NCBI GenBank assembly: GCA_038044745.1
Contig: JBBSZK010000002.1
Span: 35,790-99,789 of the forward strand
From: Nanobdellota archaeon
GTDB lineage: Archaea; Nanobdellota; Nanobdellia; Pacearchaeales; GW2011-AR1
Length of the DNA stretch: 64,000 nt
Reading direction: 5' to 3'
Part shown: positions 3,483-30,380 of the stretch, piece by piece
Position numbering within the stretch: position 1 is the first letter of the stretch
Layout: each line of letters begins with the position of its first letter
Translations under genes and position numbers: made by a program
Notes under the pieces: model-generated
Told to the model about the DNA's origin: nothing
Database searches by the model: none
The model's input: only the letters and a program-made list of their open reading frames with translations

Positions 3483-3773
3483 TTACTTAGACACTTTTTT
3501 CGCTTTTTTTGCATGGACTGCATCGAGCGGAGCAGAAGCCTGTGCGATTTTATCGGCAGCTTTCTTTTCAGCAGCATAACGCTTTTCACGAGAATCATAA
3601 AACGCAGCAGTCCATTTGAGCTTTCGCTTATCACGACCCAACTTCAAATGGTTCTTGCGACATTTCAACGAGCAATAGTAATGCATGAACCCATCATTCG
3701 TAATCAAATACGTACCCGTGTAATCCTCGTAGTCCTTCCCGCAGAACACACATCTAGCGAGCGCCATTAGCAA
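3483..3773 (-). CDS. rpl24e: ribosomal protein L24e
   Basis: CVFCGKDYEDYTGTYLITNDGFMHYYCSLKC zinc-ribbon pattern typical of L24e. Lies in the conserved L7Ae-S28e-L24e neighbourhood. Confidence 0.85.
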   Translation of the reverse strand: MLMALARCVFCGKDYEDYTGTYLITNDGFMHYYCSLKCRKNHLKLGRDKRKLKWTAAFYDSREKRYAAEKKAADKIAQASAPLDAVHAKKAKKVSK

Positions 3774-4141
3774 GATTCTCCGTAAGCCCCGCGAGGAATA
3801 GTAAACCCTGCAAGCCCTTTGTCATCATCATAAATAAGGTCGCTTGGTCGCAATCTAAGAGAACGGCTAAATTCGTGAAACGCTTCTGCAGAGACACGAT
3901 AACCCATTCCTTGAAGATGAAGTTCTCTACTAGTAATCACATAATCTGATTTAGGTGTACCAATAATAATGGTGCTTCGACCAAATAGAGTATCCTCTAA
4001 TTGCAGAGCAGGATTACCAAACAATGCACGCGCACCTTCAATAAAGACGTTATCGCGAGAAGTCTCCCTAGAAGGAGGACTCACGGGCGCACGAGGTTCA
4101 CTGCGAAACAGCTGATCTGCCTTGTAACCCGAACGAGCCAT
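3767..4141 (-). CDS. hypothetical protein (124 aa from MARSGYKAD...) inserted between S28e and L24e
   Basis: ATG at 4141-4139 lies 1 nt after the S28e stop, and its stop overlaps the L24e start. No motif recognised. Longer track ORF 3767..4282 overlaps S28e in another frame. Confidence 0.4.
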   Translation of the reverse strand: MARSGYKADQLFRSEPRAPVSPPSRETSRDNVFIEGARALFGNPALQLEDTLFGRSTIIIGTPKSDYVITSRELHLQGMGYRVSAEAFHEFSRSLRLRPSDLIYDDDKGLAGFTIPRGAYGESC

Positions 4142-4142
4142 C

Positions 4143-4445
4143 TTAACTCTGTGCCCCCTTGGTAATGTTACGACGAATCTTGCGCGCTTCAATTTCAGTC
4201 TCGCGCAGGATAAGCAAATCGCCAATGCGGACCGGACCCTTGACGTTGCGACGCATAGAACGACCTCGGTTACGCCCCTCAAGAATCATAGCTTGTACTT
4301 GCGTAACTTCGCCACGGGCACCCGTACGACCTAGAAAGGCTTCAACACGAGCAGGCACGGGCCCCTCATCGGAGAATCGACTCTTAGTAGTGCCCTGCGA
4401 CTGAACAGGTTTGGCATCTTTAATACGTTGTGGCTTCGAACCCAT
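4143..4445 (-). CDS. rps28e: ribosomal protein S28e (with N-terminal extension or upstream start)
   Basis: [51 protein letters not shown] matches the S28e core (GEVTQV...ILEGRD.GR...[19 protein letters not shown]). Confidence 0.8.
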
Positions 4446-4449
4446 AGAA

Positions 4450-4797
4450 TTACTTTGCCTTCTTCAGAGAGGCAATCTCCTTATCTGATTCACCTGCATC
4501 GATAACTGCAACAGCAGCCGTAGAAACAGGTAATCCGATAGCCAGTCCAAGCTTCTGCTTAGAATCAACCTCATGACACGGAATATTTTTTTCTTTACAC
4601 AACGCAGGAAGATGCGCAACAATCTCCTTAGGATTCACATCGACCGCATACAAAACAAGTTTAGCAACGCCACGCTCTATCGCTTTCGTAACTTCGTTAC
4701 TTCCCTTGTCAACTTTTCCGGTTTTTCTTGCTATTTCGATTATTTTGTAGAAGTCCATGTCTGGCCTCCATCCAACGATGTCATTGGTTGAAAACAA
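4450..4797 (-). CDS. rpl7ae: ribosomal protein L7Ae (K-turn binding)
   Basis: [69 protein letters not shown] matches the L7Ae/L30e family. Confidence 0.85.
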
Positions 4798-4820: not shown

Positions 4821-5189
4821 TTATTGCGAAGCAAGATAATACGTACGGAGACTGTCAAAGTATTTCTTTCCGAATTCAAGTGCACATCTCGTGTTATCAT
4901 CGTTAGGATTTTGTGCCAAACAAGTTTCAAGCTGCATAATCGTACGAGAAACATCGGAACCATCTTCAATCAGAAACCGCCGACGCTCCCCTAATTCAGG
5001 ATGTTCCTCAATTAAACGTAGATAGACATGAGCGTCCTGTGTTTGTGGACCAAATACATCAAGAATAGAGCCTGCCCCGCGAACGTAGTTCATAAAGCGA
5101 CTAGAAAAAGAACGAGACGTTCGAGGAGTAAACACACGACGAGTATAGTTATCAACAACTTGTTCAAAAGAAGGAAGCGAGGGAGTCAT
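4821..5189 (-). CDS. hypothetical protein
   Basis: 122-aa ORF, no recognisable motif. AT-rich ~275 nt spacer downstream. Confidence 0.35.
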
Positions 5190-5465
5190 TAGAAATAGGA
5201 GAAAAATGAGTTTATTAATATTTTGATAAAATATCGAAAGGATTTGTTCTTGCAGAACAAGTACATAGAAACTTTTAAGAAAATTTGCAAGAGTTTGGAG
5301 AAAAGATATTCAAGATTTTTTAAACCATTGGCTTCGATGAAAATCATGTGCATTTCATGCTTCAAGCTGTGCCCAAATATTCTCCTTTCCTTCGCAACTA
5401 TTTCGAATCGTTAAGAGCCTTACAGCAATGAAACTCTTTGAAAAGCATCCGAATTTGAAAAAAAG

Positions 5466-7567: not shown

Positions 7568-7996
7568 TTAAAAAGAAGGATTAATACGAGATACCCACGG
7601 ACAACGCGCCTTATAACGGCGGTCGATCACCATATTCAGATCATCAACCGGTAGAACACGCACAGCATCAGTACCTTCGGGAAGCGCAACGGGGCCCATC
7701 TGTATAACATACCCCTTCGACGAAGCGTCATACGTCGCCCTATGATTGCCGGATACCGAACAACCAGGGGGCATCAAAGGGCCGAGCGTATCTTTCACAA
7801 ATCTATCAAAATGGTTCACAACATCGAAAGCAACTTCTAACGTGCGTGCATTAAGTTCGCATTGTGAACTATCAAGTTCCTCTTGACGATCGACGATTCC
7901 CCTATAGCGCGCAGCAATATCATTCAAACTCATAAAGCGCACGAACAAAGAGCATTTAAAAAGGTTTCGCAAATAGAAAAGTTTAAAAGAGAACAC
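7568..7996 (-). CDS. hypothetical protein (start may be the internal Met at ~7933, MSLNDIAARYRG...)
   Basis: ORF only; no motif recognised. Confidence 0.35.
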   Translation of the reverse strand: MFSFKLFYLRNLFKCSLFVRFMSLNDIAARYRGIVDRQEELDSSQCELNARTLEVAFDVVNHFDRFVKDTLGPLMPPGCSVSGNHRATYDASSKGYVIQMGPVALPEGTDAVRVLPVDDLNMVIDRRYKARCPWVSRINPSF

Positions 7997-8010
7997 GGAA
8001 CCTTTTTTTC

Positions 8011-8826
8011 ATGAAACGTTCCTTACCAAAAAGAAAGAAAGAACTAATGGGGGCCCGACTAAGAAAAATAACAGAGCAAAGCGGATATACGGCGAAAGAA
8101 ATGGAGGATGCTCTAGGAAGAACACGAAGCATGATTCAGATATACGAGGCAGGATTATGCCTCCCGTCTACAAAAGTCGCACTGCGATACGCAACGTTGT
8201 TCAACCTATCTCTTGAGGAACTATTTGGAGAAGAGTTGGGCGCCCATTACAAAAAAATTCAAGAATCTTATGTCTATAAGCTCAATTCTAAAAAAGAGGA
8301 ACACGCTCCCTTAAACACGCAACGCCTGCGTGAAGACAGAAAGGCAGCAGGTATTGTTCTTGAACGGATGGTTGTCAAAATAAATAAATTATGGCCCGAA
8401 CTCGTGGTTAACAAAAATCTCCTTTCTATAATAGAACGAAGAACACATATGATAACGGAAGAAGTCGCACTTGCATATGCACTCATACTCGAGAAACCTC
8501 TGAAGACCTATGAGGTACAAGAAACTCCGAACTCTTTCAACCCGTATAAGGTGTTCAGAAAACAAGAATCAAAGCCCCTTAATATCACGCTAGACGCTGA
8601 TCTTGAAACAGCCCTTGCACATTTAACGAGTACAGAAGCAGAACTAATAAGAAAAATTTATTGGGACGAAAAAAGCTTAAAAGAGATAGGTCAGGAACAG
8701 AGAGTCAGCAGGGAAAGAATCAGACAAAAAAAAGAAAGAGTAATTAACAAAATGAGAAACTTTTTCAAAAAAAATGGCTACCCCATTAGAGAAGACTTCA
8801 ACAAAAAAACAGAAACAGAGGAGTAA
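8011..8826 (+). CDS. two-domain DNA-binding regulator: N-terminal XRE-type HTH plus C-terminal sigma-70 region-4-like HTH
   Basis: The N-terminus (ITEQSGYTAKEMEDALGRTRSMIQIYEAG...LEELF) is Cro/C1-like. The C-terminus (LTSTEAELIRKIYWDEKSLKEIGQEQRVSRERIRQKKERVINKMR) aligns closely with sigma70 region 4.2 ([28 protein letters not shown]). Confidence 0.6.
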   Translation: MKRSLPKRKKELMGARLRKITEQSGYTAKEMEDALGRTRSMIQIYEAGLCLPSTKVALRYATLFNLSLEELFGEELGAHYKKIQESYVYKLNSKKEEHAPLNTQRLREDRKAAGIVLERMVVKINKLWPELVVNKNLLSIIERRTHMITEEVALAYALILEKPLKTYEVQETPNSFNPYKVFRKQESKPLNITLDADLETALAHLTSTEAELIRKIYWDEKSLKEIGQEQRVSRERIRQKKERVINKMRNFFKKNGYPIREDFNKKTETEE

Positions 8827-8854
8827 ATAAAAAATAAAAAATCAGTAAGAAGAG

Positions 8855-8980
8855 TTATCTCTTCTTTTTCTTGCGACCGCCGCGAGCCATAACGGCCTCA
8901 CAGACATTACCTTGCCCATCAACATAGTACAAGTGTCCAGGTTTACGCGCAATCACTTTTTTTACAACGATTTTTCCCAT
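8855..8980 (-). CDS. small basic protein, 41 aa (MGKIVVKKVIARKPGHLYYVDGQGNVCEAVMARGGRKKKKR)
   Basis: Not in the ORF track (<60 aa). Strong SD GGAGGTG 5-11 nt upstream of ATG at 8980. Lys/Arg-rich tail. Function unknown. Confidence 0.5.
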   Translation of the reverse strand: MGKIVVKKVIARKPGHLYYVDGQGNVCEAVMARGGRKKKKR

Positions 8981-9381
8981 AGCACACCTCCTTTTATCGG
9001 AATACATAAGATTGTCGTCGGGAGTATTTAAATGTTTCTTATTTTCCGACGAGAAAACGCGTTATTTTTGAGTTACGACGATTTAAAGGAATTTCGACCA
9101 GATAATGTGCGGAACAATGAGGCACGATTGTAAGCATGAAAGGCCGAACAATACAAGATTCAATAACCCGACGACGACTATCGAGCCAAACGGCCACAAA
9201 CGGAAAAAAAACAAACCACGAGGTCAGAGCAACTCGACACGGGCGATGAAACACAAATAGAAGCGGCCACGTATACCTTGTACGAAACATTAGACCAATC
9301 CCCCGACGAAAGTAGCCTACACGCGAAACAAACAGAGAAAACCGTCGACGACGCGCCCTAAAAATAAACTGCTCAGACATA

Positions 9382-9693
9382 CTAGACGTCAGCCATTTCA
9401 GACTTAATCTTAGAAACCTTACCAAGACGCTCAGAAACCCGATCGATATCCGTCGATAATTTCTTTTTCTTCTCGCCAAGCTTCGCTTCCTTCTCCATGA
9501 GAGAAGCAATTTTCTGCTCAAGTTCTCGTTCAAGTTCTCGATCAACATCAATAGCCATAGAAACCTGCTTGAGTTCATCCTGCAACCTATTTTTATCACG
9601 CTTAAGTGCCTTTATTTGAACTTCTAAATCCTTAAAAGCCGTGGCCAAAAGAGAAGACGAGGAAGGCAAAACACCCTTCTTTTTTAACTTCAT
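9382..9693 (-). CDS. coiled-coil protein (103 aa), last gene of the surface-protein operon
   Basis: Heptad-rich sequence LEVQIKALKRDKNRLQDELKQ...ELERELEQKIASLMEKEAKL. Co-directional with and 23 nt downstream of the 9716..10726 gene. Confidence 0.4.
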   Translation of the reverse strand: MKLKKKGVLPSSSSLLATAFKDLEVQIKALKRDKNRLQDELKQVSMAIDVDRELERELEQKIASLMEKEAKLGEKKKKLSTDIDRVSERLGKVSKIKSEMADV

Positions 9694-9715
9694 CAGGCAA
9701 CAACGACGCTGGTGT

Positions 9716-10726
9716 TTATAAACGTTTCTTTAAACGCCTATCGAGAGCATCAAGTTTAGCACGCGTAGTCTTGTAGGTGGAAGAAGTGATATACCTCTTC
9801 TTATACGCCTCGATAAGAAGCTGCCGTTGATACATCAATTTTCGATGAGCTCTACGACCATCTTGTCCGCTACGTGCCTGCTTAAGTTGATCGTCCCAAT
9901 AAGTCGCGCTCGTGACCATACGTCTGCGCCACAAATAATTGATAACTAAAAAGCTTACAAGTAAAATCCCAATAACAACTAAGGCATAATAAAATGAAGC
10001 GTTGTTGACAAGGGGTGGAGAGAGCGAAACATTGTCCGTGCGTACAAAAGTTGTCGCCGTTCCATGCGACGTTCCCGCTACAATCTCAACTGCAAGTATA
10101 AGCGGACCGTCTGAAATAGATTCCGGCAAAGGGAGTGCGGGCGAAAGCTCAAGAGTGTTCTTGACGTCGACGGATTCAACAGTATATGCAATACGAGTAC
10201 CATCAAGAGCATACACCGAAGAGCGAAGTGTAGCTATAGGATGCAAAGAGCGCAAATTATAAAGTGTAATCTGGGGTATAAAAACGTCGCCTGCACGCAG
10301 TTCAGAATAAATCGGCAATTCTCGTATTGACGCGTCAAAAAGAGGAGATTTACTTTGCACTTCAAGAACGACCGGAATCGAAACCGTCATAAATCCCTCT
10401 GAAATATCAACCGAACCAACATAGATACCAGGAGAAAGAGAATCAAACCCTAACGAGAGACGCATCGAGATACTCTGACCGGTATCAAGGAAAAAGGAAG
10501 AACGATCAACACTAAAAAAGGAGTTTAGTGAATGAGCTGCAACAGAAAAAACAGTAGGCGCGCCCCTATTAAAAATAGATACTTCGCTCGACGCGAGTTC
10601 ACCAGGCTCTACGGTAATAGACACAAGCGGTTTATTAACTTCAAAAGTAGTTTCTTCGGAATCAGCCGAAACCAAGCCAGTTACAGAGATAAAGATAACA
10701 AACATAACCAAATGAATACCCCTCAT
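9716..10726 (-). CDS. surface protein: signal peptide, CARDB-like domain, TM helix and ~70-aa basic coiled-coil cytoplasmic tail
   Basis: MRGIHLVMFVIFISVTGLVSADS signal peptide. SSEVSIFNRGAPTVFSVAAHS is CARDB-like. TM segment YYALVVIGILLVSFLVINYLWRRR is followed by a basic tail. Confidence 0.6.
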   Translation of the reverse strand: MRGIHLVMFVIFISVTGLVSADSEETTFEVNKPLVSITVEPGELASSEVSIFNRGAPTVFSVAAHSLNSFFSVDRSSFFLDTGQSISMRLSLGFDSLSPGIYVGSVDISEGFMTVSIPVVLEVQSKSPLFDASIRELPIYSELRAGDVFIPQITLYNLRSLHPIATLRSSVYALDGTRIAYTVESVDVKNTLELSPALPLPESISDGPLILAVEIVAGTSHGTATTFVRTDNVSLSPPLVNNASFYYALVVIGILLVSFLVINYLWRRRMVTSATYWDDQLKQARSGQDGRRAHRKLMYQRQLLIEAYKKRYITSSTYKTTRAKLDALDRRLKKRL

Positions 10727-11748
10727 GCTGCCCTCCGATTACCTAATCCTTGCGACCCTCTTAATTGTTTCGCCTTACGATACGTTCTAAACGAATAAAA
10801 CAAGATAAGCAAGGATAACACAAGCAAAGCAATCAAAGCAATCAGCGAATAGTCTAACGCGGTTGTAGAAACGCTGAAGTACGCACTCGCAGTCGCAAAT
10901 CCCTGTGGATACACAATCTCTACCCCAACTAAATAATCTCCCTCTTTCAAACTCCTCGTATCAAACTCCTTCAGGTAACTCTTGCTACGAAGCACCCTAA
11001 ACGTCTCAGTTTCGGTAAAGAGCGTAACTCCATCGAAGTCTTTAATCGTATATGTCGCGGTAACGTCGGTATCCTCTGCAGGCCCGACTTGTTGAAGAGA
11101 AATGAATGCCTTAAGAACCTTGCCAAGACGAAACACCTTCATGGACTCGGGTACCGTAAGTGAAACGTCGAACAGCGCATTAGCACTATGTACGTTGAGA
11201 AGCAAAATAGCATCTTTTCGCTCGCCTGCCGCGCTAAAGACAACTCTTCCCCCATAAATGCCGCCCTCGGGAGCCCGAATAGTCAACGTAACCTGTCCCG
11301 AGGCACCCGGCTCGAGTGTAAGGCTCGAGCTATCCAGCGAAACAAACGAAGCAACACCCGTGAGTGAAACGGCAATAGTAAGTGATGCGCGCCCCGTATT
11401 GCGTATAGTAATAACACGTTCTTCGAGCGCACCCGCAACAATCCCGATATTCAATTCTTCAGGATCGACAGTAAAAAGTGCAGCAGGAACACTGGCTGCA
11501 CTTCCGCCACCGCTGCTGCTGCCTCCTCCCGATGGCCCTCCTGAATCGCCTGAATCATTAGTAGCATTTGAAGGCGGAGCAGTGATAGTGAGTGAAAACG
11601 TTCCGTCTGAACTCGCTTGTGCAGAAAGTGGAAGAGACCAAAAATCAGAGCTGAAAAACAAAAAAAAGGTAAATGCGTTACACACAAACGCGAGCATGAC
11701 AAACGCCAGAACGACTGATTGGTAACGCATAATATAAAGAGGAAGCAA
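10723..11748 (-). CDS. surface protein: signal peptide, Gly/Ser linker, CARDB-like domains and C-terminal TM + basic tail
   Basis: ERVITIRNTGRASLTIAVSL is CARDB-like. C-terminus LIALIALLVLSLLILFYSFRTYRKAKQLRG. 4-nt overlap with the downstream gene. Confidence 0.6.
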   Translation of the reverse strand: MLPLYIMRYQSVVLAFVMLAFVCNAFTFFLFFSSDFWSLPLSAQASSDGTFSLTITAPPSNATNDSGDSGGPSGGGSSSGGGSAASVPAALFTVDPEELNIGIVAGALEERVITIRNTGRASLTIAVSLTGVASFVSLDSSSLTLEPGASGQVTLTIRAPEGGIYGGRVVFSAAGERKDAILLLNVHSANALFDVSLTVPESMKVFRLGKVLKAFISLQQVGPAEDTDVTATYTIKDFDGVTLFTETETFRVLRSKSYLKEFDTRSLKEGDYLVGVEIVYPQGFATASAYFSVSTTALDYSLIALIALLVLSLLILFYSFRTYRKAKQLRGSQGLGNRRAA

Positions 11749-11760
11749 CGCTATAAAAGA

Positions 11761-12222
11761 TTATCTCCTAAATTCAAACTTAAGCGAACCCTCGTAAGAA
11801 CCAAAGGCTGTACCTGAAGGCACAAGAAGGGTAAATGACGCATTGTATCGAGAAAGTGGCTCAATTGTAAATGAAGGCTCAGCCGTAGTAAGATAAAGAT
11901 TCAAGGAAGGATCAATCAACACAGTAACACCCACCGGAAACGAATACGGATTATCGATAAAAACAACACGCGAGGAAACCGTATCGGGCAATACACGACC
12001 AAAAGTAAGTGAAGAAGTGTTTATCTCTAACCCTACCGAATCTCCTACCATAAACCGTACATCGAGTGCCCGCACATCAAACGGTCGAGAAAAAATGATA
12101 AACAAAGAAACGAACACAATTAAAAGACAAAAGAACGCAATCGCGAGTATCAAAGAAGAAGGCCTATGTATCACGATACTCTTCTCCGAGGAATAGCACG
12201 TTTCCTGCGCACAAAGAACCAT
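11761..12222 (-). CDS. membrane-anchored hypothetical protein (N-terminal TM); start uncertain because it overlaps the upstream gene
   Basis: Hydrophobic segment LILAIAFFCLLIVFVSLFIIF. Same operon and orientation. Confidence 0.4.
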   Translation of the reverse strand: MVLCAQETCYSSEKSIVIHRPSSLILAIAFFCLLIVFVSLFIIFSRPFDVRALDVRFMVGDSVGLEINTSSLTFGRVLPDTVSSRVVFIDNPYSFPVGVTVLIDPSLNLYLTTAEPSFTIEPLSRYNASFTLLVPSGTAFGSYEGSLKFEFRR

Positions 12223-13265
12223 GCCGCCAAGAGCGCGACAACAACGATTGCAATCACGAGAGCTACAACGGCAACATTAATCTTTTTCACAAATGCAAGA
12301 CTAACCGCCTGCTCGCTCGATAAGCCCTCATAGAAGAGCATAACACGAGCCTCAAAGGTATCATTAACAATCGAACTTGTATCGAAATAACCTTCGAGCG
12401 TCGCTCGACCAAAGGGACTAAGCACAACAGTAGGCGTCAAAAAAGAAATATCGCTTCCAAGAACAGTTACATTCGCGAAAACATTTTCAATAGGAGCATT
12501 CCACGCGCTTTCAATATCCAAGTTAATTTTATTAATAGAATCCCGCTCAAAAAAGCGAGTATAATTAAGAATGTGCACCTCAAGTGTACCAATACGAAAA
12601 GCCTTTTCGTCAATCGCATCAGCCTCACCATACACTGCATGGGCAACCACACGATAACTTCCCGGCGAATAGAGGGTGCTGTCAATCTCTGCATGAAACA
12701 CGGCAGAATCAGTAGAACCAAGTAACGATTGAGCAACCCCCAATCGTTCAACAAATGCCTCGCCACGATAAATATCAAGGTAGACATCAAACGAAGTTGT
12801 CTCTTTTCCACGATTAATAACTGAAATGTCAAAGGGAACGACTTCTCCCTTATTTACCGAAGACGTAGCGAGCGAAACTTCAAGATACCGCCCCGGATAC
12901 GGAACATAAATGAGAATCACTCCTCGAGGTTCTCCCGAAATCCCCAATCCGAGAAGGGAAGAGGTTTCAGCACCCGTGACAAACACTCGATGGATGCCCG
13001 GCACATCCGCCTCATCGGGAAGCGTTACATATACAATGACGGTACCTGTGCTTGAAGACGTTGAATCACTCAGCTGCGCATACTGCGCGAAATCTCCCTG
13101 CAAAGAGAAAGAAAATCGAGCTTCAGGGTTAGAGGAAAGAAAAGTAAACGGAAAGGCTGCCTTCAAGCCAGGTTCGTAATTAACTTCGTATCGTGCCGGA
13201 GTAAGTCCCGCGACAACAAGAGGGGCAACAAGCACAACAAAAAAGAACAAAAACAATCTCCTCAT
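12171..13265 (-). CDS. CARDB-like surface protein, paralog of the 14276..15514 gene (signal peptide, C-terminal TM + Arg-rich tail)
   Basis: Shared blocks with the paralog: AGLTPARYEVNYEPG vs LGITPGRTTLQFEPG, LIYVPYPGRYLEV vs HVLVPYPGKYAEP, SPGSYRVVAHAVYGE vs APGSYRAVVNVLYDE. C-terminus VAVVALVIAIVVVALLAAWFFVRRKRAIPRRRVS. Confidence 0.65.
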   Translation of the reverse strand: MRRLFLFFFVVLVAPLVVAGLTPARYEVNYEPGLKAAFPFTFLSSNPEARFSFSLQGDFAQYAQLSDSTSSSTGTVIVYVTLPDEADVPGIHRVFVTGAETSSLLGLGISGEPRGVILIYVPYPGRYLEVSLATSSVNKGEVVPFDISVINRGKETTSFDVYLDIYRGEAFVERLGVAQSLLGSTDSAVFHAEIDSTLYSPGSYRVVAHAVYGEADAIDEKAFRIGTLEVHILNYTRFFERDSINKINLDIESAWNAPIENVFANVTVLGSDISFLTPTVVLSPFGRATLEGYFDTSSIVNDTFEARVMLFYEGLSSEQAVSLAFVKKINVAVVALVIAIVVVALLAAWFFVRRKRAIPRRRVS

Positions 13266-13299
13266 ACGAGTAGAAAGAAAAAATAGTTTTTATACGTTT

Positions 13300-14004
13300 C
13301 TACGAGCACGGGCCCGGAGCTTGGCAATAAATCATATGGAAGTACGACGACAGATTACCCTGCAAAGAGTCATACGGCACCCTCAAACGAACGCCGATGC
13401 GCAATGAATCAGATCCGTCCGAAAATCTGAAAACGCCACATATGGGCGTGCCAGGATTAGTGGTATTAACATCAAAGAATAATCCGAGCGGAATTAACCC
13501 GCTCACACTAGGATTGACAGAGGAGTTATCCGTACCGCCCGTCGTATTAAGACAGCTACCTGAGTCTATATTTGAAACATTATACTCAAATCGAGGATTA
13601 GTGCCTCCCAACAATTGCGTAGAATTCTTACTTGTATAAAGCAGGATAGTTGCATTTACATTACCGATGTTCTCAAGAACAAACCCGCTCGAACCCGTAG
13701 CAGACCCAATTGACCACGAACCGCCAACCGCATTGATTGTACCACCCGCCTGATTAGTTGTTAAGTTTGCTTCCGACTGTCCCTCAGTCACGTATCCCGA
13801 ACCCCATTGAACAGAGCTATTCGTAAAATTAATGCTTAACAAAGTCGCAACCGTCAAGTTAAGCGTGGCGTTTGCCTGTGACGCAAACCCTGTCACCCAC
13901 GTATCACGAAACGCAGAAAGCGAATAATAACTAAACCCTGCTGAAAAAAGCGCAGAAAACGCCGCAAGCGCCGCAACTAAAACAAGCAATTGCTCGCCTT
14001 TCAT
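13300..14004 (-). CDS. secreted/anchored Asn-Ser/Thr-rich surface protein (sequon-dense)
   Basis: N-terminal hydrophobic segment LLVLVAALAAFSALFSAGF, then many N-x-S/T sequons (NATLNLT, NFTNSS, NLTTN, NATILLYTSKNST...). Confidence 0.5.
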   Translation of the reverse strand: MKGEQLLVLVAALAAFSALFSAGFSYYSLSAFRDTWVTGFASQANATLNLTVATLLSINFTNSSVQWGSGYVTEGQSEANLTTNQAGGTINAVGGSWSIGSATGSSGFVLENIGNVNATILLYTSKNSTQLLGGTNPRFEYNVSNIDSGSCLNTTGGTDNSSVNPSVSGLIPLGLFFDVNTTNPGTPICGVFRFSDGSDSLRIGVRLRVPYDSLQGNLSSYFHMIYCQAPGPCS

Positions 14005-14219
14005 GAACCTGCACCCGGACGAGGAAGTACCTGAAGCCCAACATCACTCGAAGGGTCTCCAACCGCAAGACCCGCGCCCGTCTGACGAACCGGCACAAAG
14101 TCCGACTTAAAACTATCACGTACGCTTAAAGAAACCATAACCGAAAGAACCGAAAACAACACAGCCACCGCCAACAACAACACAATAACCTTTGTCGAAA
14201 CACCCTGTTCAAGCGCCAT
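14001..14219 (-). CDS. small membrane protein (72 aa from MALEQGVSTKVIVLLLAVAVLF...)
   Basis: Internal Met gives a start just downstream of the previous gene's stop (14276). Single TM. The longer 105-aa track ORF would overlap its neighbour. Confidence 0.35.
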   Translation of the reverse strand: MALEQGVSTKVIVLLLAVAVLFSVLSVMVSLSVRDSFKSDFVPVRQTGAGLAVGDPSSDVGLQVLPRPGAGS

Positions 14220-14275
14220 CTTTTTACAAAAGAAACACTGAGAGGCACTATATAAAGATTTCGGGCAATAAACGA

Positions 14276-15514
14276 TTATTTCCGAGCAGAAAACTTTTTT
14301 CGTAACACTAAGAACCAAAGCACGTTAATAAGTACAAGTACGCCAATAATCGTCGCAAGCACAATAACAAGCGTATTAGACTCTCCCGAATCACCCGAAT
14401 CTTTCGAAATAACGTATCCCAACCCTATAACCGAGATATCATTAGAAGAAACTTTCAGCTTAAAGTCCTGCTGGTCCGAATGTTCGTCATATCTCAAAAA
14501 GACAGACGAATCATACGTTCCTTCCTTAACACCTTCCGTATCCCAGAACGTTACAAGCAACGCTTTCCCAAGCGCAGGCACCTCATACGTCGCAGACTTG
14601 AAGTTAGCCATAATCTCCCGTTGCGCATTATACACGACCATATCCGCATATGCCCCTGAAATCGGCTGACTCCACTTATTCTCAATTAAGAGCTCAAACT
14701 TAGCAATCTCCCCAAGACTAAAATCATTAACCTCGACATTCTGCAGCTCGAGGACGCGTTTACCCACTTCAAACGTTTTTTCAACCTTCGTAACGCCTTC
14801 GTCATAGAGCACGTTTACCACCGCCCGATACGAACCAGGAGCAACTGCAGAAGCATCCCACTCAGCAACAAGTTCAGCACGAGCACCACTTGCGAGCGAA
14901 ACTTCATTCGAACTAAGCGTAATAATTTTTTCATTAAGCGCAGTATATACTTCTACGGTGGCCCGCACCCTAACAAGATCAAGTTCGCCCCGACTTACCG
15001 TGGGAATTAAGAACGTAACTTTTCCCGAATCATCAGGACCTGCAATATTCAAATCGGGTTCGGCATATTTCCCTGGATACGGAACAAGCACATGCAACTG
15101 TGTCGTCACTCCGACCGCAGCACCGACAAACGTTGCACCTGTCGCACCTCGTTTTGGCAACTTTATCACTATTATTTCAGCTGTGCGCGTACCGGGCGTG
15201 AGCGTCGAAGGTGCCCTGAAAACATAACTTAATTTCTTTTCAGATTCGCTTGCCGCAACATCCCACGAAGTAGTCGAAAGTGCAATCGTCTGATTTAACT
15301 CCCCCTGCACTAAGAGTACCAATTGCATATCTTCCTGCTCTGAATTGATAACTGTAAACTCAACGGTTTGTTCAACCCCGGGTTCAAACTGCAACGTTGT
15401 ACGCCCGGGAGTAATTCCCAATGCACTAACCTGCATCACCACAAGAACCACCATCCCTGCGAACATAAACAAACGTTTCAGGTCAATCATGTTGCCCTCC
15501 AATGAAAGAATCAC
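14276..15514 (-). CDS. CARDB-like surface protein (signal peptide, C-terminal TM + basic tail), paralog of 12171..13265
   Basis: Signal peptide MFAGMVVLVVMQVSALG. CARDB-like strands (VSRGELDLVRVRATVEVYT). C-terminus LVIVLATIIGVLVLINVLWFLVLRKKFSARK. Confidence 0.65.
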   Translation of the reverse strand: MILSLEGNMIDLKRLFMFAGMVVLVVMQVSALGITPGRTTLQFEPGVEQTVEFTVINSEQEDMQLVLLVQGELNQTIALSTTSWDVAASESEKKLSYVFRAPSTLTPGTRTAEIIVIKLPKRGATGATFVGAAVGVTTQLHVLVPYPGKYAEPDLNIAGPDDSGKVTFLIPTVSRGELDLVRVRATVEVYTALNEKIITLSSNEVSLASGARAELVAEWDASAVAPGSYRAVVNVLYDEGVTKVEKTFEVGKRVLELQNVEVNDFSLGEIAKFELLIENKWSQPISGAYADMVVYNAQREIMANFKSATYEVPALGKALLVTFWDTEGVKEGTYDSSVFLRYDEHSDQQDFKLKVSSNDISVIGLGYVISKDSGDSGESNTLVIVLATIIGVLVLINVLWFLVLRKKFSARK

Positions 15515-15977
15515 CTGCTTGTTCTAATGACTCGTCAGGAGCGAGAATTATTTTTCCCGTTAAAACGCCCTTATTGTACACGTCCACGTTCAAACGAGAA
15601 GTTCCCGCATTAGTAATGTCATAGCCCGCATCAGACACGCGCACCTGCAAATCAACAACCGATTCAACCGTAATCTGTCTAATCTCGCTCGGTAAAACTC
15701 CTTCGACCATCCAGTAATAAGTGCCCGGCTCGAGAGTAATGAGTGCTTTATCACGCACCGAAATACGTTGCGGCGACGTGAAGTCAACCGTGTCATCAAT
15801 TAACAAGAAGTCTCCACGTTCAAACGAGAAGAGCACGGCACCCGTAGCAATAACTCCATTCGAAGGAGTATTCAACAACGGAGTCGCGTAAAAGAAAGCC
15901 CAGACGACAAGCGCAAGCGTTCCCACTACTAAAAGTGCATCAACCCCGTACACTATTTTTTTACGCATATTATTCAC
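15483..15977 (-). CDS. N-terminally anchored small surface protein
   Basis: TM segment ALLVVGTLALVVWAFFYATPLL. 8-nt overlap with the giant gene's stop. Confidence 0.5.
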   Translation of the reverse strand: MNNMRKKIVYGVDALLVVGTLALVVWAFFYATPLLNTPSNGVIATGAVLFSFERGDFLLIDDTVDFTSPQRISVRDKALITLEPGTYYWMVEGVLPSEIRQITVESVVDLQVRVSDAGYDITNAGTSRLNVDVYNKGVLTGKIILAPDESLEQAGDSFIGGQHD

Positions 15978-18900
15978 TCAAACTCGCAACGAGCGTGACG
16001 TTGGCCCTCCGTACCCCGGGCGGTTCATTAATAGGAACCGTAACATTAATATCAATTTCGGCCGTATCGGTAGTATCGGTATAATTAAATGACGAAAAAC
16101 AAAGCAGAGGCGATTCAGGCAAACCATCGCTCAGAGGTATCGCCGCATAAGCGGTTTGCGACTGCGCCCAGATAAACGAACCGAGCTCAGAGCTATAATT
16201 AGCCGCTTTAAACTGGAAGTAATTCGAGCCGCCTGACTGTGTTTCCCAAAGGTGCGTTGAGGTAATCGTGACATTAACGAACGAATTACCATCATTCTCA
16301 AGCAAAAACGGTAGCGGAGCATCATCAGAGGTATCATTCCATTGTAAGTAATCAAGTGAGCCAAAGTCAATAGAATTATTCAAAAGCGTAATGCTTACCA
16401 CCGAAGAGATATTGATGCGCCAAGGTACCGTCCAGCCACTCATGCCATCGCTATCGTTAACGCGTACAGTCCAATTATAATAGTCAAGATTATCATACAA
16501 ACAGCGCAAGTCGGGCACGACAGCATAGCTCACATTGGTGCCTCCCAAAAGGCCTGTCACCGTCGCCGAATAAAAATGAGAAATATCTGTGCAGGCGCTT
16601 GTCGCTACCAAGCTCACGTTCAACTGCCACGTTGCACCTTCGTCATCTGCGTCGAATACCGTAAAGTTAAGCACAGGAGTCCTATTCGTCGTGCGGCTTG
16701 CATCAGGGGGAGCAAGATGCGTAATGTTCGGAATTGTATTCAAAACAGTCACATTATACGTTGCATTAAACGGGCCCGTATACAAAAATCCATCAAATAC
16801 ACGCACGCCACACGTCCAATTATGTCCCTTCGTTGTATTACGATCGTCCAACGTAGCTATGAAAACGCTGGCATTTGCATAACTCGTGTTGTAATCTGAC
16901 ACCAAATGAAGAACTGAATTATTGTACCAAAATACACTCGCGTTCAAGAACGTATTCGCATCGGGGTCACTTAAAGTAGTGTAACAGTTCAAGTCCTGTT
17001 CGGTTTTATTCGACCCAGAAGTCGAATTGATATGAACAAGAGTCGCTGCCGGAGCACGATTTGACACAACACCAATACTATAATTGCTCCATCGCGATAC
17101 ATTAAAGATAACCGTGCCTGCATTCAAATCGGTGAAGTTGTAACAATCAACGCATCCCGCAACATCATCCTTAAGAATAACCGGATTAACGAAATTAGTA
17201 GAAATACCGGTAAGCGTTACGTTTGCAGTCGTATTTAATCCCGAATTAACCTCGTTTCGAACGGTAGCGCTATTGTTTACAATACGCACATCCGCACTTA
17301 AATTAATACCCGAACCATTAATATAATCAAGAAACTTAATCTTTCCAAATAAGCTCGATTCAAACGTGAAATAGCGCCCGCCCGTATCAGCAAACGAATA
17401 ATTTGCGAAATAACTATCTTCGAAGCGAATATTCTGCAGATCAGTCCCTGAAGCAATAAACTGAAGGTCAGGATAGGAGCTATTGGTACCAATCACGCTC
17501 AGATTCGTGAAATTCATACGATCAAGCGCCGCACTAATTCCGTTCACATTGAAAACGAGAGCCGGGCCCGTAGAGTTATGCACAAATATGTTCGTGAAGT
17601 TATGGTCGCGAAGCGCACCCGTTGTGGGAAGGAAATGAAGAGAAATATTGTTTCTTACAAACGTCAAGTTCCTAAATATACCTACTTTAGCAGCCGTAGA
17701 AATGCGAAGACCATAGAAAGTACTGGAATTAATATACGAATTTTCAAACCATACATCCTGGGCGCTAATTAAGATACCTGCCGTATTATTATGCAGACTA
17801 AGTCGCGAAAGATTGGTTCCTGACGAAAGTGAATCTATCGAAACACCGAGTGCACTTTGCGAAACAACAACATCAGAGACAATCGGACGCGTCGCAGCCG
17901 TTATAGAGATACCCGTAGATGCCGAAGTTATAGAAAGATTTGAGATAAACGCGTTCGCAATATAACTGCCCGTACCTATAAGAGATACCCCTGTAGTAGT
18001 ATTAGTAAATACCGAATTAGTGACGTTGATTTGATTAGACCGAATGACAACCCGCGCACCCACATCGTTATCCTTAAACCATAATGTATCTAAAACAGTC
18101 ACGTTTGCCCATTCAACCAAGAGTCCTATGTCTCCCGAAATAAGCGTCGTGTTAAACACGCGAGCATTATTTGAATGATTCAAATGGATTCCCCATCCAA
18201 ACGGACCTTCGGACGAAAGACTGATATTTACCCCAGAAATCGTAGTGTTATATTCATCACTGAAAATGACTGTATAATTATACGTAGAATTAACCATCCA
18301 ATACCCGCTACCGAGAATGCTGATATTGGGCGCGTCAACACTGATGCACGGAGTAACACCACTCGGCACAAGCGTGCCAATCTGGGTATAAACAGAATTA
18401 GCCTGACTTAAGTTCACACAGATGTCAAGAGGCATAGTTAGCGTACGCAGCGTCCAGTTCGTTGCGTTCATCGCGTAGTTGCTTGAGTTATCACCCGCAT
18501 AATAATTCCAAACGTAAGTATCGTTTCGAGGAAGCACAAACGAGAGATTAACAATACCCTGGCTCACGTTCAAACTCGAGAAATTTGTACCTATCAAACT
18601 CGTAGCATTCCAGATATACAGCGTTGCGTTTGAAACGTTTATGTTATCAGAAATGTTCGCCGCAAAATAGACAATCGGAAAGCTCGCAGAACTGTCATTG
18701 GAAGGATGCATGAGAGAGACGACGGGAAAAGTTATATCAGCTAGATTAATACCATACCCCTCGTAAGTAAGGTTTCCTATCAGAATAGGAGTATAAAACG
18801 AGTTAGTTCCCGCATAGTGAAACAAAGAGACATTCGCGGAAGTCAAATTTCCAGTAAGCGGATAACCCGTAACGACATAGGCACTCCCATTATAAGAAAA

Positions 18901-21900
18901 ATTCTGTTCGGCGGCTCCATTCACCGAAAGGCTAAAATTACTATTCAAAAGTAGTTCGGCATTCTGAAGACTAACATTGACCGTTGTATTTGTTCCAAAA
19001 TCAACGGAGGTAAAGCGTTGTTCGCCCCGAGAAAAATAACGAACAGAAGCATTAGAAAAAATTTGAGAAACTTCTGAATCAGTAAGAGAGACATTAAATA
19101 TCATTACTTCATCAATGAGACCATTAAAAGCGCTAGACCCCTCTGAACCGAAGAGAAGAGGATTATTATTAAGCTTGAGCGCCTTGCTCCCTGAAACCAG
19201 AACGCGAGCTACGGGACTACCGTCCCGGTAAAGTGTAACTCCTCCGGTAGTATTATAAGTACAAAAAAAATTATACCATTGATTTTTTGACATAACCAAA
19301 GAATCAGTCGCAGCAAAATTGGTACCATCGGCGCGCTTCACAAGACAGCGCATGTTCATGCTAGCATTAGGTGTAAGCGCAAAGGTAAAATCAGAACCAG
19401 TTCCTTTAATCATGACGCGCCCAGACGACGTGCCAGAACCTCCCGACCAATTAATCCAAGCTCCCCAACTCAAATTTAAAGGTAAGTCAAAAAGACTTTC
19501 GTTGAAAGTTACATTAACAAGATCGTTCGTGCCATCAAAAAATGCGCTTGCTCCAAGAAAACCGAGCCTCGCAAACGCACCACGTTGATAAGAACCATCA
19601 CTACTATGAGAAGAAAAGTCAAAAGCAGTAATGTTATCATCTCTATCGAAAGGCCAATACCCCCTAAGGTCAGAGTAAGGAGCAGAGTTGCCAACCGTCA
19701 GATGAGTAAACAACGTTTCTTGAGTCACGTTTTGGTCTGTTGAACTACTCGCAACAAGCGTGGGGTCAACAATATGGTCAAACATCATGCTTCCATTAAG
19801 CACATGCAAATCAAATACATCTTGACTATAATTTTCAGGAAGCTCGGTCAAATAAATAGTATAATAACGCTCATCAGTCACATCATCAAACACGGCAAGC
19901 GTCGTATTCTGCGATGTCTCATACACCTTCACGAAAGGAGTGCCATTCAGCACACGCGGATAGAGCGTGATATCATTCGCCCGCGTCAAATTGCGTTCAA
20001 ACGTCACGCGCACGTAATGTCCGTCCGGAATCGGCTCACTCCAATTCCCATCGAGTTCCTTCACAGACTCGTACACATCGGAAACAAAAGTGCGATTCTC
20101 ATCAAGGTGGTCTGCTTTTGTAATAACAATAATCTCATAAGTCTGATTAGAAAAGTGTGGCACAACCCACGCCACCGAATCAATAAATCCATCCCCATCA
20201 CTATCCGTCGCTTCAAACGGAACCAAAACCTGTGCAAGAGAAGCAACCGTGACATTTTCTGAAACGGGGCGGACCGAAATCCACGCCGAATCGGATGTGT
20301 TGTCCACCTCAGCGTCTGAATTGTCAACAAATTCTGCAACAACGGCGCCCGTGAGTGAAGCCCCCTCAGAAGATTCATTCAACATCGAATCTTCCGACTC
20401 CGAAATAGTCGAAGAGTCGTTAGTTTCAGCAAGTGATTCATCTACAAGAATTTCATCAGAAAAAACATCAGACGCCGTTGCAAGATGAGCACTGTCAATT
20501 TCATCAACAAGAGCCATATCAGCTACCTCATCTTGCAACTTAAGGCTACTATAATTAACGAAGGTATCGGGAGTAAGCCATGCCAACTGAATAGTAGAGG
20601 GCTTAGTAATCCGTAACTCGTTCGGAAGAGAAGCAATCACGACCACATCAGAATAATTAAGCGCCTCAGACGCAACAAGCGTTATCGTCTTTCCTCGTGC
20701 CTGCGAAATTTCTACTGCCGCAGGAGGTGCGGTATAGTATTCGACCGTATATGCCGTAGCCCCTGCATCAAGCACGACCTCGGAAGAAGACTCGTATGAG
20801 AACGCCTCTCCCGCTCCGAGAGAAGCCGACTGATTAGAGAGTTCAGACGTAGCGTTATCAGAAGCAACCGATTCAACAGAAATATCACTCGTAACCTGTC
20901 CCGTACCTGCAACAACGGCCCCTGCAATCCAAGATGCAAAAGAAGGACGCGATTCAATAAGCGCCGTAATCTGTCCCGTAAGCGGAACAGAAAGAGTGAC
21001 GTTATCTGCCTGAACAGAGTCTCCCATCGAATCAAAGGCAGTAACACTCACGTTCTCTGCGCCAGCAGGAAGCGGCAACACGAAAGAAGAACCATCGGGA
21101 ACGCTTACGTTCGTCACCCAGTACACCGGTTGACCCAGCACAACTTTAGTACGGCGAGTTGTAAATGAAAACGTCGAGGTCCGGCTCACGACCGAAAATT
21201 CATTACTTTCGACCGAGTCGCCAGCAGACGTAAACGCCCGTATGCGCGCAGTGCGCACACCGACAAAGGGCTGCGCCGCACGCACATCCATAAAAGATCC
21301 TTCAAACGAAACAACCATATCCGAAGCAATAAGTTCGTAAGCATCAGCGCCAATAAAATACGTGCTCAAATCAAGGCGCGCACTGTAGTTCTCATCAAGA
21401 GAAAGAGAAGGAATAGTCTGCAATAGCATCAACGTGTCATTAGCAATAGTCTCATTCACAATTGTTTCATTCACTAACGTCTCGTTAAACACATCAAGGA
21501 CTTCTACAATTGTTTCGTTCTCTTCCGTAGAAGCAGCAAGCGTCAGCTCCGAACTATCGTCTACCAAGGTTACCCCTCCAAAAACAGCGGTAAGACTCAG
21601 ACGTGTAGCGTTACGTACTACAAGGTCGAACAAATCGAGAGGAATGCGCACCCGATATCGGCTCTCTCCCCGATAATCCTGCCCAAATCCTGAAAGGTTC
21701 ACTGAATAAGAACTGGACACGCGCACCGACGTCCCTTCCTGTTCAACAAGCACAAAAGAATCAGAAAGTTCTTCGCCAGCAGACCCACGCACACTTCCCG
21801 AAACTAACTGAGCCGTATACCCTTTAGAGAGCCCATACTCAAACGAATCCATTCGCGAGGCGGTACCCATAATAATATCGTTCTCATCCGAAATAACCCC

Positions 21901-27989: not shown

Positions 27990-28113
27990 GAGCCTATAGC
28001 TCAGCCCGGTTTAGAGCACCGCTCTTATAAGATACGCGCTCGTGAGGGCGCCATTTTCATCGAAAAAATTCGAAGAAAGGCGGGGGTCCCCGGTTCAAAT
28101 CCGGGTAGGCTCA
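27990..28113 (+). tRNA. tRNA-Ile (anticodon UAU) with ~48-nt intron (28030..28077) at the canonical 37/38 position
   Basis: Hand fold: acceptor GAGCCUA/UAGGCUC, D stem GCUC/GAGC, anticodon stem CCGCU/GGCGG, loop CUUAUAA, variable loop GGGUC, T arm CCCGG-UUCAAAU-CCGGG, discriminator A. No encoded CCA. Confidence 0.65.
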
Positions 28114-28241: not shown

Positions 28242-29174
28242 TCACTTAATACAAAATATCAACGAACACTCATTCGCCTTATCTTTAAAAAAACGCACAT
28301 GTGAAAAATACATTTTACAAAACTTTTCCAATTCTTGAGCATAATATTTGTATTGAATAGCAACCACTATTTCATCACCTGCCTTAAATCTGATGCGTTT
28401 GCCCTCGCACACGAACACTTTATCGTGTTTGATATGGTAAAAGAACTCAAGACGACCGTTAGCAAATCGCGCATCATAACGCACCTCGGACGAGGAAAAA
28501 CCAAGGCCGGCCATGAGCGAAAAAAACCATTCGTTGAATATAGGCTGTCGATATTTTTCAATACCTGCAAACCGCTTTCCCGTACGAATTCCATTCCCAA
28601 CAATCAGCAGGCCCCCATGAGCCATGGCACGACTCATAGAAAAAAGAAATTGATTAATCTCAAAACTAGCCAATGTACTACCAAGAAGAAGGTATGCGGC
28701 GCGAGCATCAGACCGAGCCCTTATTCGCCTGACCAGTTTATCGGGAGATGAAAAGTCCTCGGTGTAAGAAGGCCCTACGGAAAACGTTCGCGACGTTCGC
28801 GTCCGTAACCGTGTTTTAGCAAGATGAATCAAAGGAAGGCTGACATCAACCGGAAAATATTTTGCCTTAATTGTGGAAGGAAGCGACGTTACAAAAACCT
28901 CTGCTTTTTTTCCATCCCCGCACCCAAAATCGACAACATCAAGTTTTCCTCGAGCACCATCAAAAAAACGAGGCACATGAAAACGAATCAAATCAAGTTC
29001 TCTATCGACTACATTAAGTTTATACCTCGGCCAACACTCCAAGTTAAGAAATCCTTGAGCAAGCTGGGGAGTTATGTAAAGCAGTTTATGATTAGCAATA
29101 TTCCACACACGTTTGCCACGCTCTACAGAGTACCCGTTCTTAACTAACTCTTTCAAAACGAGTTGTTCGAACAT
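28242..29174 (-). CDS. SAM-dependent methyltransferase, EgtD-like (Methyltransf_33-type histidine-specific methyltransferase family)
   Basis: Motif I VVDFGCGDGKKAEV. LLGSTLASFEINQ resembles the EgtD LGSTIGNF block. LLIVGNG is also present. Confidence 0.6.
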   Translation of the reverse strand: MFEQLVLKELVKNGYSVERGKRVWNIANHKLLYITPQLAQGFLNLECWPRYKLNVVDRELDLIRFHVPRFFDGARGKLDVVDFGCGDGKKAEVFVTSLPSTIKAKYFPVDVSLPLIHLAKTRLRTRTSRTFSVGPSYTEDFSSPDKLVRRIRARSDARAAYLLLGSTLASFEINQFLFSMSRAMAHGGLLIVGNGIRTGKRFAGIEKYRQPIFNEWFFSLMAGLGFSSSEVRYDARFANGRLEFFYHIKHDKVFVCEGKRIRFKAGDEIVVAIQYKYYAQELEKFCKMYFSHVRFFKDKANECSLIFCIK

Positions 29175-29218
29175 AGAAAAATCAGCAAAAACATCTATTT
29201 ATACGTTTGGAAAGATCG

Positions 29219-30163: not shown

Positions 30164-30290
30164 AGACGGCCCTCCAGAACAAAACCTTCTGCATAATCTT
30201 CGAAAATAGCCGCCTTTTTAACCCTTCCGTTTTGCAGGTGTTCCATGCAAATAGTAACGTTTAAAACCGCTTTTCAACTCGTTTCAAAAT

Positions 30291-30363
30291 GCCCTTGTAG
30301 TCTAGTGGCCAAGGACGTCGCCCTTTCGCGGCGAAAACCCGGGTTCAAATCCCGGCAGGGGCA
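30291..30363 (+). tRNA. tRNA-Glu (anticodon UUC)
   Basis: Hand fold: acceptor GCCCUUG/CAGGGGC (one G-U), D stem GUCU/AGGAC, anticodon stem UCGCC/GGCGA, loop CUUUCGC, T arm CCGGG-UUCAAAU-CCCGG, discriminator A. No encoded CCA. Confidence 0.8.
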
Positions 30364-30380
30364 TAAACCATTTTGGCATT
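30351..30380 (+). repeat. attL: 30-bp direct repeat (cccggcaggggcataaaccattttggcatt) overlapping the last 13 nt of tRNA-Glu
   Basis: Exact copy at 57948..57977. The flanking sequence diverges on both sides. Confidence 0.8.

Follow-up and report, generated by a model that had tools for sequence, protein, structure and literature searches.

The gene at positions 8011 to 8826 of the DNA analyzed here encodes a 271-amino-acid (aa) protein that is quite probably a DNA-binding regulator with several helix-turn-helix (HTH) domains, and not a sigma factor. The DNA (the window) is a 64,000-nucleotide (nt) stretch of a Nanobdellota archaeon, taken from positions 35,790 to 99,789 of the forward strand of contig JBBSZK010000002.1 (assembly GCA_038044745.1). 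Three HTH modules follow one another in a single chain, with no recognizable sensor domain: two are of the XRE (Cro/C1) type, and the third is of the sigma-70 region 4 (r4) type. The initial annotation of the gene had described an XRE-r4 protein; both of those domains are present, but a second XRE-type HTH between them, at aa 101 to 159, had been overlooked. The XRE-XRE-r4 architecture was not found described in the literature that we searched on Sigma70_r4 in archaea and on fusions of HTH_3 with Sigma70_r4.

Domain architecture of the regulator

AlphaFold2, run on the family alignment, gave a model with a mean predicted local distance difference test score (pLDDT) of 79 that contains three helical modules. 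Helices at aa 7 to 72 (XRE) are followed by a connector at 74 to 97, a bundle at 101 to 159, a linker at 171 to 189, a further bundle at 192 to 254, and a disordered tail. The features of the gene and its product, all on the plus strand, are as follows.

8011..8826, +: coding sequence of the XRE-XRE-r4 protein, stop codon included; 271 aa, ATG start (open reading frame [ORF] list)
8047..8226, +: module 1, XRE/Cro-C1 HTH, aa 13 to 72 (Pfam HTH_31/HTH_19/HTH_3, PDB, AlphaFold2, Foldseek)
8230..8301, +: conserved helical connector, aa 74 to 97 (AlphaFold2 helices 74 to 84 and 87 to 97; family alignment)
8311..8487, +: module 2, divergent second XRE-type HTH, aa 101 to 159 (hhalign, AlphaFold2, Foldseek)
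8521..8577, +: disordered linker, aa 171 to 189 (AlphaFold2 pLDDT <50; poorly conserved in the family alignment)
8584..8772, +: module 3, sigma-70 region-4-type four-helix HTH, aa 192 to 254 (Pfam match at aa 201 to 250, 8611 to 8760)
8707..8727, +: start of the recognition helix, SRERIRQ, aa 233 to 239 (RERIRQ as in sigma70 region 4.2, alignments with 1tlh_B and 1tty_A)
8758..8787, +: family-specific conserved tail after r4, NFFKKNGYPI, aa 250 to 259 (family alignment; F252 invariant)

Pfam Sigma70_r4 (PF04545) matches aa 201 to 250 over its whole length (model positions 1 to 50 of 50), with an E value of 1.2e-10 and a score of 41.1 bits against a gathering cutoff of 24.1. In the AlphaFold2 model this module consists of helices at aa 192 to 203, 207 to 218, 223 to 230, and 234 to 254; the NFFKKNGYPI tail falls beyond the Pfam r4 model. 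Two other models match the C terminus below their cutoffs, Sigma70_r4_2 (20.0 versus 25.7 bits) and UPF0122/YlxM (PF04297; 22.3 versus 22.7 bits). Neither this match nor that of NF045758 from NCBIfam (21.7 versus 80) supports membership in YlxM/UPF0122, and both are weaker than the match to Sigma70_r4. In Pfam, no GerE/LuxR, HTH_10, or TFX_C match to the 271-aa protein was found at E ≤ 10. The initial annotation had proposed a specific affinity of the C terminus for sigma-70 r4 and had named assignment to a generic LuxR/GerE class as the outcome that would speak against it; the affinity is supported by the full-model Pfam score and by the sigma factors retrieved from the PDB (see below), and the generic class is absent even at E ≤ 10. 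It had placed r4 in the C-terminal 50 aa, where r4 is indeed present, but the domain spans aa ∼192 to 254 and is followed by a tail of ∼17 aa.

The string that the initial annotation had quoted, SLKEIGQEQRVSRERIRQKKERVINKMR, was found at aa 221 to 248. It aligns to region 4 of E. coli sigma70 and T. maritima RpoD (PDB 1tlh_B and 1tty_A), with V-x-RERIRQ identical, and 13 of its 28 residues agree with the E. coli string that had been quoted for comparison. A sequence search of the PDB with the full protein matched its C terminus to region 4 of RpoD, RpoS, and SigA and its N terminus to the XRE domain of ImmR. The C-terminal 84 aa alone retrieved almost exclusively sigma factors, the best being SigA1 (E value, 1.5e-4), and no Tfx, LuxR, or NarL chain was among the best 60 matches. 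PHROGs likewise assigned the C terminus to phage sigma-factor families and the N terminus to phage regulators.

This similarity to sigma factors is confined to region 4. The NCBIfam sigma models (among them RpoD, RpoH, RpoS, FliA, and SigB) match the 271-aa protein via their C-terminal ends only; TIGR02937, for example, scores 40 against a cutoff of 42.9, at model positions 96 to 163. Pfam gave no match to region 2 (Sigma70_r2, PF04542) or region 3 at E ≤ 10. Lacking regions 2 and 3, the protein does not qualify as a sigma factor. The recognition helix itself varies among the homologues described below: RERIRQ is kept in the window protein and in P0004, and the corresponding residues are AIQRISL in P0003 and SSARAKQ in P0005. 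A conserved −35 reader would not be expected to vary in this way, whereas regulators that differ in their targets would.

The N-terminal module was matched by HTH_31 (34.2 bits), HTH_19 (31.1 bits), and HTH_3 (26.1 bits) on aa 13 to 72, each above its gathering cutoff, which bears out the Cro/C1-type HTH proposed in the initial annotation. AlphaFold2 predicts five helices for it, with a pLDDT of about 88 to 93, and Foldseek matches it to XRE domains at a TMt of ∼0.8. The middle module gave no Pfam match when its segment was searched alone; it is assigned to the XRE class by profile-profile comparison and modeled structure. Its family profile aligned to that of module 1 with an hhalign probability of 87.8% and an E value of 3.3e-6, the difference between the two being an insertion of ∼7 aa between helices 2 and 3. 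Modeled alone, module 2 reached a pLDDT of 81.7, and the top 50 Foldseek matches in the PDB were all XRE domains (SinR, C.AhdI, P22 c2, ClgR, and DdrO), at template-modeling scores of 0.7 to 0.8. Residues G73, Y80, and S86, near the helical connector between the two modules, are invariant in the family, and the connector can also be aligned in a prophage protein, P0126.

Modules 1 and 2 thus have the XRE/Cro-C1 fold of SinR, P22 c2, C.AhdI, and ImmR. XRE/Cro-C1 regulators are typically repressors that act on operators overlapping promoters. The classical members carry one HTH and an oligomerization or sensor domain and bind short palindromes as dimers; the window protein instead combines a tandem XRE with a third HTH class.

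The r4-type HTH has precedents in archaeal regulators. The Tfx family is ∼98% archaeal, and its N-terminal HTH resembles sigma70 region 4; the structure of one member, EnfR (TON_1525), has been solved, and its HTH, which Pfam classifies as r4, superposes on r4 of T. aquaticus sigmaA (PMC10570040). EnfR binds the codh promoter region, and both EnfR and Tfx bind promoter regions (PMC10570040). Archaeal LuxR-type proteins with InterPro sigma-70 r4 entries have been listed as well (PMC5413776). The initial annotation had reasoned that r4 in this protein is surprising since archaea lack sigma factors; given these documented regulators, the premise is weak.

Like Tfx (MTH0916) and EnfR, the window protein is an archaeal protein with an r4-type HTH, and these two supply a precedent for r4 as a DNA reader in organisms that lack sigma factors. 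Unlike in Tfx, where the basic r4-type HTH is N-terminal and precedes TFX_C, an acidic α+β dimerization domain, r4 in the window protein is C-terminal and preceded by two XRE HTHs, and TFX_C is absent at the threshold given above. Chains of Tfx and EnfR are also missing from the PDB sequence matches, which places the window r4 nearer to true sigma factors (group 1/2). It shares with region 4 of RpoD, SigA, and RpoS the full-length Sigma70_r4 match, the identical RERIRQ, and the best PDB sequence matches. Unlike the sigma-70 factors, however, the protein lacks regions 1.2, 2, and 3, and with them any core-binding or −10 recognition module; its 4.1-4.2 loop is four residues shorter, and its host has an archaeal RNA polymerase (RNAP) with TBP and TFB.

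This closeness to group 1/2 sigma factors, the nearest solved structures, rather than to Tfx or LuxR, is compatible with the alternative that r4 is a protein-protein or RNAP-directed module, which could serve as a sigma-like adaptor by tethering the XRE domains to the transcription machinery or to an anti-sigma-like partner, or could target the bacterial RNAP of a partner organism. The full 4.1 plus 4.2 extent of the domain and the conserved family-specific tail behind it fit such a role, and P0126 also has an RNAP α C-terminal domain (α-CTD), which suggests that this class of proteins borrows RNAP-interaction modules. We nevertheless consider the alternative decidedly unlikely. To our knowledge, archaeal RNAP has no sigma-docking surface; region 2, the main core-binding determinant of sigma factors, is absent; the recognition helix varies in the family as it would for differing DNA specificities; the characterized archaeal precedent uses r4 to bind DNA; and no partner gene is conserved across the contexts of the family.

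Archaeal host, gene neighborhood, and promoter region

The archaeal host proposed in the initial annotation is well supported. The flanking gene encodes Kae1 (TIGR03722, arch_KAE1; 412.8 bits versus a cutoff of 375), and L24e, S28e, and L7Ae are recognizable within 5 kb, at 3483 to 4797, and are annotated on syntenic contigs too. A tRNA at 27990 to 28113 (plus strand), missed by ARAGORN, is 124 nt long (Rfam, 53 bits) and presumably contains an intron, which fits an archaeal genome. The only species-level genome with a relative of the regulator is a Candidatus Woesearchaeota metagenome-assembled genome (MAG; L001, CAYHBQ010000019).

Gene order at the locus is the same on three separately assembled contigs from Hainich groundwater (0.1-μm fraction) and in the Woesearchaeota MAG: Kae1, a 119- to 121-aa gene, the regulator, and a 41-aa gene, then genes of 133, 103, 336, and 336 aa. 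The regulator gene is monocistronic, divergent from the 121-aa gene and convergent with the 41-aa gene, in the following layout (a dot marks features without a strand).

7568..7933, −: divergent gene, 121 aa, MSLNDIAARY..., candidate coregulated neighbor (syntenic in orthologous loci)
7958..7969,.: inverted repeat, left arm AAAAAGGTTTCG, overlapping the TATA-like box of the divergent gene (repeat search)
7982..7989, +: TATA-like box TTTAAAAG, −29 from the ATG (sequence; conserved in L001 and in the Hainich contig L002)
7996..8007,.: inverted repeat, right arm CGGAACCTTTTT, just upstream of the start codon and presumed transcription start site of the regulator (repeat search)
8847..8866,.: hairpin with T-runs on both strands, candidate bidirectional terminator between the convergent genes (consensus scan alone)
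8855-8980, −: very basic 41-aa protein, MGKIVVKKVIARKPGHLYYVDGQGNVCEAVMARGGRKKKKR, convergent with the regulator (no Pfam family, faint PHROG match only)

No Pfam, PHROG, or PDB match was found for the product of the divergent gene. The 41-aa protein is 100% identical in the Hainich orthologue and has one substitution in the MAG, with a synonymous divergence (dS) of 0.04. A further difference lies upstream of this locus: ∼630 bp of the window (4822 to 5454), holding an ORF of 122 aa at 4821 to 5189, is missing from the orthologous Hainich contig; the BLAST alignment breaks at 4822/5454 in the window but is contiguous in L008.

Domains typical of bacteria, in DNA from a 0.1-μm groundwater fraction that also contains bacteria of the candidate phyla radiation, could point to an assembly chimera or bacterial contamination, with a gene that is really bacterial. 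We give this explanation almost no weight. Archaeal genes lie on both sides of the regulator in the window, in at least three separately assembled contigs, and in a MAG; the gene has a leaderless archaeal promoter with TATA at −29 like the rest of the genome; and the same promoter style is found at every gene on the contigs of its distant homologues. Because the synteny recurs in independent assemblies, chimerism, contamination, and a prophage location are excluded for practical purposes.

Across the window, TATA-like hexamers peak at −30 to −26 of ORF starts, with 15 occurrences versus ≤4 in other 5-nt bins, as is characteristic of leaderless archaeal promoters. The regulator and the divergent 121-aa gene each have a TATA-like box about 25 to 29 nt from the start codon, which implies leaderless transcripts for both. 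The TATA box of the regulator is bracketed by the inverted repeat, whose 12-nt arms are 92% complementary and separated by a 26-nt spacer; the repeat is retained in the orthologous L002, with a spacer of 31 nt. The half-site AAGGTTYCG occurs three times in the window against 1.2 expected, and two of the three occurrences are the inverted repeat itself; there was no enrichment away from the regulator locus that would indicate a regulon in the window. A scan for sigma-70-type promoters around the regulator gene found no enrichment either, and no TTGACA-like hexamer was seen by eye upstream of the gene.

Distribution, selection, and origin

The family is very small. An exhaustive HMMER search of 1.84 billion representative proteins returned just four entries with an E value of <1e-30. 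The window protein accounts for one of them, as an identical fragment; the remaining entries (P0003, P0004, and P0005) are full-length homologues of 344 to 390 aa with ∼100 extra C-terminal residues, in which, at 34 to 37% identity, the three modules and several invariant core residues are preserved. The search also returned a protein of 172 aa that spans modules 1 and 2. Word-index and profile searches of 5.8 billion clusters added only P0001, an orthologue with 80% identity that the syntenic Hainich contigs encode, and put the family at about six clusters in that set; the next matches were primary sigma factors, via r4 alone. A metagenome locus scan with the single protein returned only the Hainich contig already found, IMG/VR scans with the window protein and P0004 gave no relatives, and matches in GenBank phages were confined to the r4 of Vibrio phage sigma factors. 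Every gene on the short contigs of the distant homologues has a TATA-like box at about −28, and no Shine-Dalgarno motif; this promoter style is an indication, not proof, that these homologues are archaeal, and marker genes gave no placement.

For the regulator, comparison of the window with the Hainich lineage gave a nonsynonymous divergence (dN) of 0.10 and a dS of 0.17; the resulting dN/dS of 0.62 is spread evenly over the modules and is below 1 in each of them. It is the highest of the locus compared (window 7568 to 9700 versus L008 and L002): Kae1 has a dN/dS of 0.08 at a dS of 1.05, the divergent 121-aa gene 0.36 at a dS of 0.97, and the other neighbors 0.04 to 0.13. Nucleotide identity along the locus is mosaic, 64 to 65% at 7601 to 8000 and 92% at 8001 to 8400. 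The comparison of these two lineages suggests that populations have recombined and that selection on the regulator is relaxed or diversifying. In the MAG, the orthologue (7887 to 8808 of L001) has a frameshift near aa ∼100 that yields two overlapping ORFs and is otherwise the same protein as P0001; the frameshift falls in the overlap of these ORFs and is either an artifact of assembly or a genuine inactivating allele.

A high dN/dS at so low a dS, a frameshifted copy, and an extremely sparse family are also what a recently transferred bacterial or phage gene would present while decaying, nonfunctional in this lineage. We regard such decay as quite unlikely, as ORFs of 268 to 271 aa with all modules are intact in both independent lineages, dN/dS stays below 1 in each module, the promoter box is conserved, the frameshift may be an assembly artifact, and the architecture and core residues persist in the distant homologues. 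Judged by that persistence in the alignment, the regulator is a real gene under long-term constraint.

The closest architectural relatives of the protein are found in phage-like contexts. P0126 comprises three HTH_3 domains, Sigma70_r4, and RNA_pol_A_CTD and adjoins a phage integrase (L012, 6001 to 7230; L013, 4015 to 5244). It is collinear with aa 3 to 249 of the window protein (XRE, connector, XRE, linker, and r4) at 24% identity, with a pairwise E value of 4e-10, and separate parts of it match Firmicutes phages and regulators of Gram-positive plasmids. P0126 is in itself a regulator assembled from promoter-recognition parts of RNAP, of which no description was found in the literature searched. 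A second protein, P0026 (HTH_3 plus Sigma70_r4), is encoded on a scaffold of 89 kb whose small ORFs are phage-like. In BFVD, the best near-full-length structural matches were "Repressor protein CI" entries of metagenomic siphoviruses, over 200 to 260 columns. P0126 differs from the window protein in an extra N-terminal XRE, and the phage proteins also have a C-terminal α-CTD or helix-hairpin-helix domain (in P0026, by sequence prediction); their genes adjoin integrases or belong to arrays of phage genes, whereas the window protein has no α-CTD and is encoded in a chromosomal core region.

These relatives raise the alternative that the gene encodes a CI-type immunity or lysogeny repressor of an integrated virus or mobile element, not a host regulator. 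The divergent-promoter layout, the fast evolution of the protein, and the GC content of the gene (0.39 versus 0.43 to 0.50 in its immediate neighbors) agree with it. The gene is, however, flanked by Kae1, ribosomal protein genes, and conserved cell-surface genes, in an order shared by independent assemblies; no integrase, capsid, terminase, or repeat boundary was found near it; relatives are lacking in IMG/VR and limited to r4 in GenBank phages; and the obvious mobile or defense island of the window, at 29 to 56 kb, is 20 kb away. We therefore judge a viral or mobile-element repressor unlikely and favor a regulator that serves the host.

For the origin of the XRE-XRE-r4 core, bacterial mobile elements or phage are a plausible source, because XRE plus r4 fusions occur in prophage-like elements, the structural matches are CI repressors, and PHROGs gave phage assignments. 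Horizontal acquisition, as the initial annotation had suggested, fits with nearest r4 relatives that are bacterial and phage sigma factors, with the collinear prophage-like core, and with the extremely narrow family. Composition gives no clear signal of horizontal transfer: GC content at third codon positions is average, and Lys and Glu codons account for the high A content of the gene.

The island is a lower-GC stretch at ∼29000 to 56500 (genes of 0.31 to 0.40, versus 0.43 to 0.50 upstream) around a tRNA-Glu gene (30290 to 30364), and it looks like an integrated conjugative or defense island in a DPANN genome. It contains the following genes.

32902-34017: Shedu SduA
34080-38008: ResIII helicase and N6_N4 DNA methylase pair
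41928-51071: RHS-repeat and giant proteins
51456-54513: VirB4/TraG-like ATPase with a PrgI-like protein

Elsewhere in the window, two tandem paralogues of Methyltransf_33 (histidine-specific S-adenosylmethionine methyltransferase, EgtD-like) lie by tRNA genes at 28242 to 30163 (minus strand). Repeated proteins of ∼336 to 410 aa, with N-terminal signal or transmembrane segments and no Pfam family, are encoded at 9716 to 15514, and giant ORFs are found at 15970 to 22773 (minus strand; 2267 aa) and 43783 to 49521 (plus strand; 1912 aa). The repeated proteins and the giant ORFs are probably cell-surface proteins typical of DPANN.

Proposed function and significance

We propose that the protein would regulate transcription in the cytoplasm of a Woesearchaeota (DPANN) archaeon by binding specific DNA sequences. 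The analogy to XRE repressors and Tfx/EnfR makes DNA binding at promoters its most likely activity. The r4 module would read the major groove, as it does in archaeal Tfx/EnfR and in bacterial LuxR and sigma-like regulators, and the protein as a whole may recognize archaeal promoters through a site that is composite or extended. Once bound, it could block the binding of TBP/TFB or the recruitment of RNAP, a repressor role being the most plausible. The best candidate target would be its own divergent leaderless promoter region with the 12-nt inverted repeat; autoregulation through that repeat is a hypothesis that we advance tentatively.

Several points weigh against this proposal. Any DNA target of the regulator is conjectural, and r4 domains can double as protein-interaction modules. 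Module 2, with its insertion at the helix-turn-helix junction, may have lost DNA binding. The dN/dS of ∼0.62, with the frameshifted MAG copy, may mean that constraint in this lineage is relaxed. As for the inverted repeat, an equally good one occurs in 3.9% of dinucleotide shuffles and in 1.2% of real 111-nt tiles, and its arms are rich in A/T runs. Of the 12 positions of the right arm, 2 differ in L002 and 3 in L001. The spacer is 5 bp, or half a helical turn, longer in the orthologue, a difference that argues against a rigid dimer operator. The search for a conserved upstream operator suggested by the initial annotation gave a divided answer: a repeat is present and kept in L002, but it is weakly significant, and its right arm is not strictly conserved.

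A more radical possibility is a domain-crossing, phage CI-like regulator, in which RERIRQ would read a hexamer near the TATA box and contact the machinery as a promoter-specificity adaptor, or whose target would be the RNAP of a bacterial partner; we consider this very unlikely. If the protein is instead the host DNA-binding regulator that it appears to be, it would represent a third architecture among archaeal regulators with a sigma-region-4-type DNA reader. Archaea normally use HTH regulators of the bacterial type, and the finding refines existing understanding without overturning it; interest would be high only if r4 retains a sigma-like, machinery-contacting role. The tri-HTH design common to DPANN archaea and bacterial prophage regulators would be a concrete case of cross-domain traffic in regulatory parts, and the protein would offer a tractable example of a −35-type recognition helix redeployed on promoters built from TATA and TFB recognition elements.

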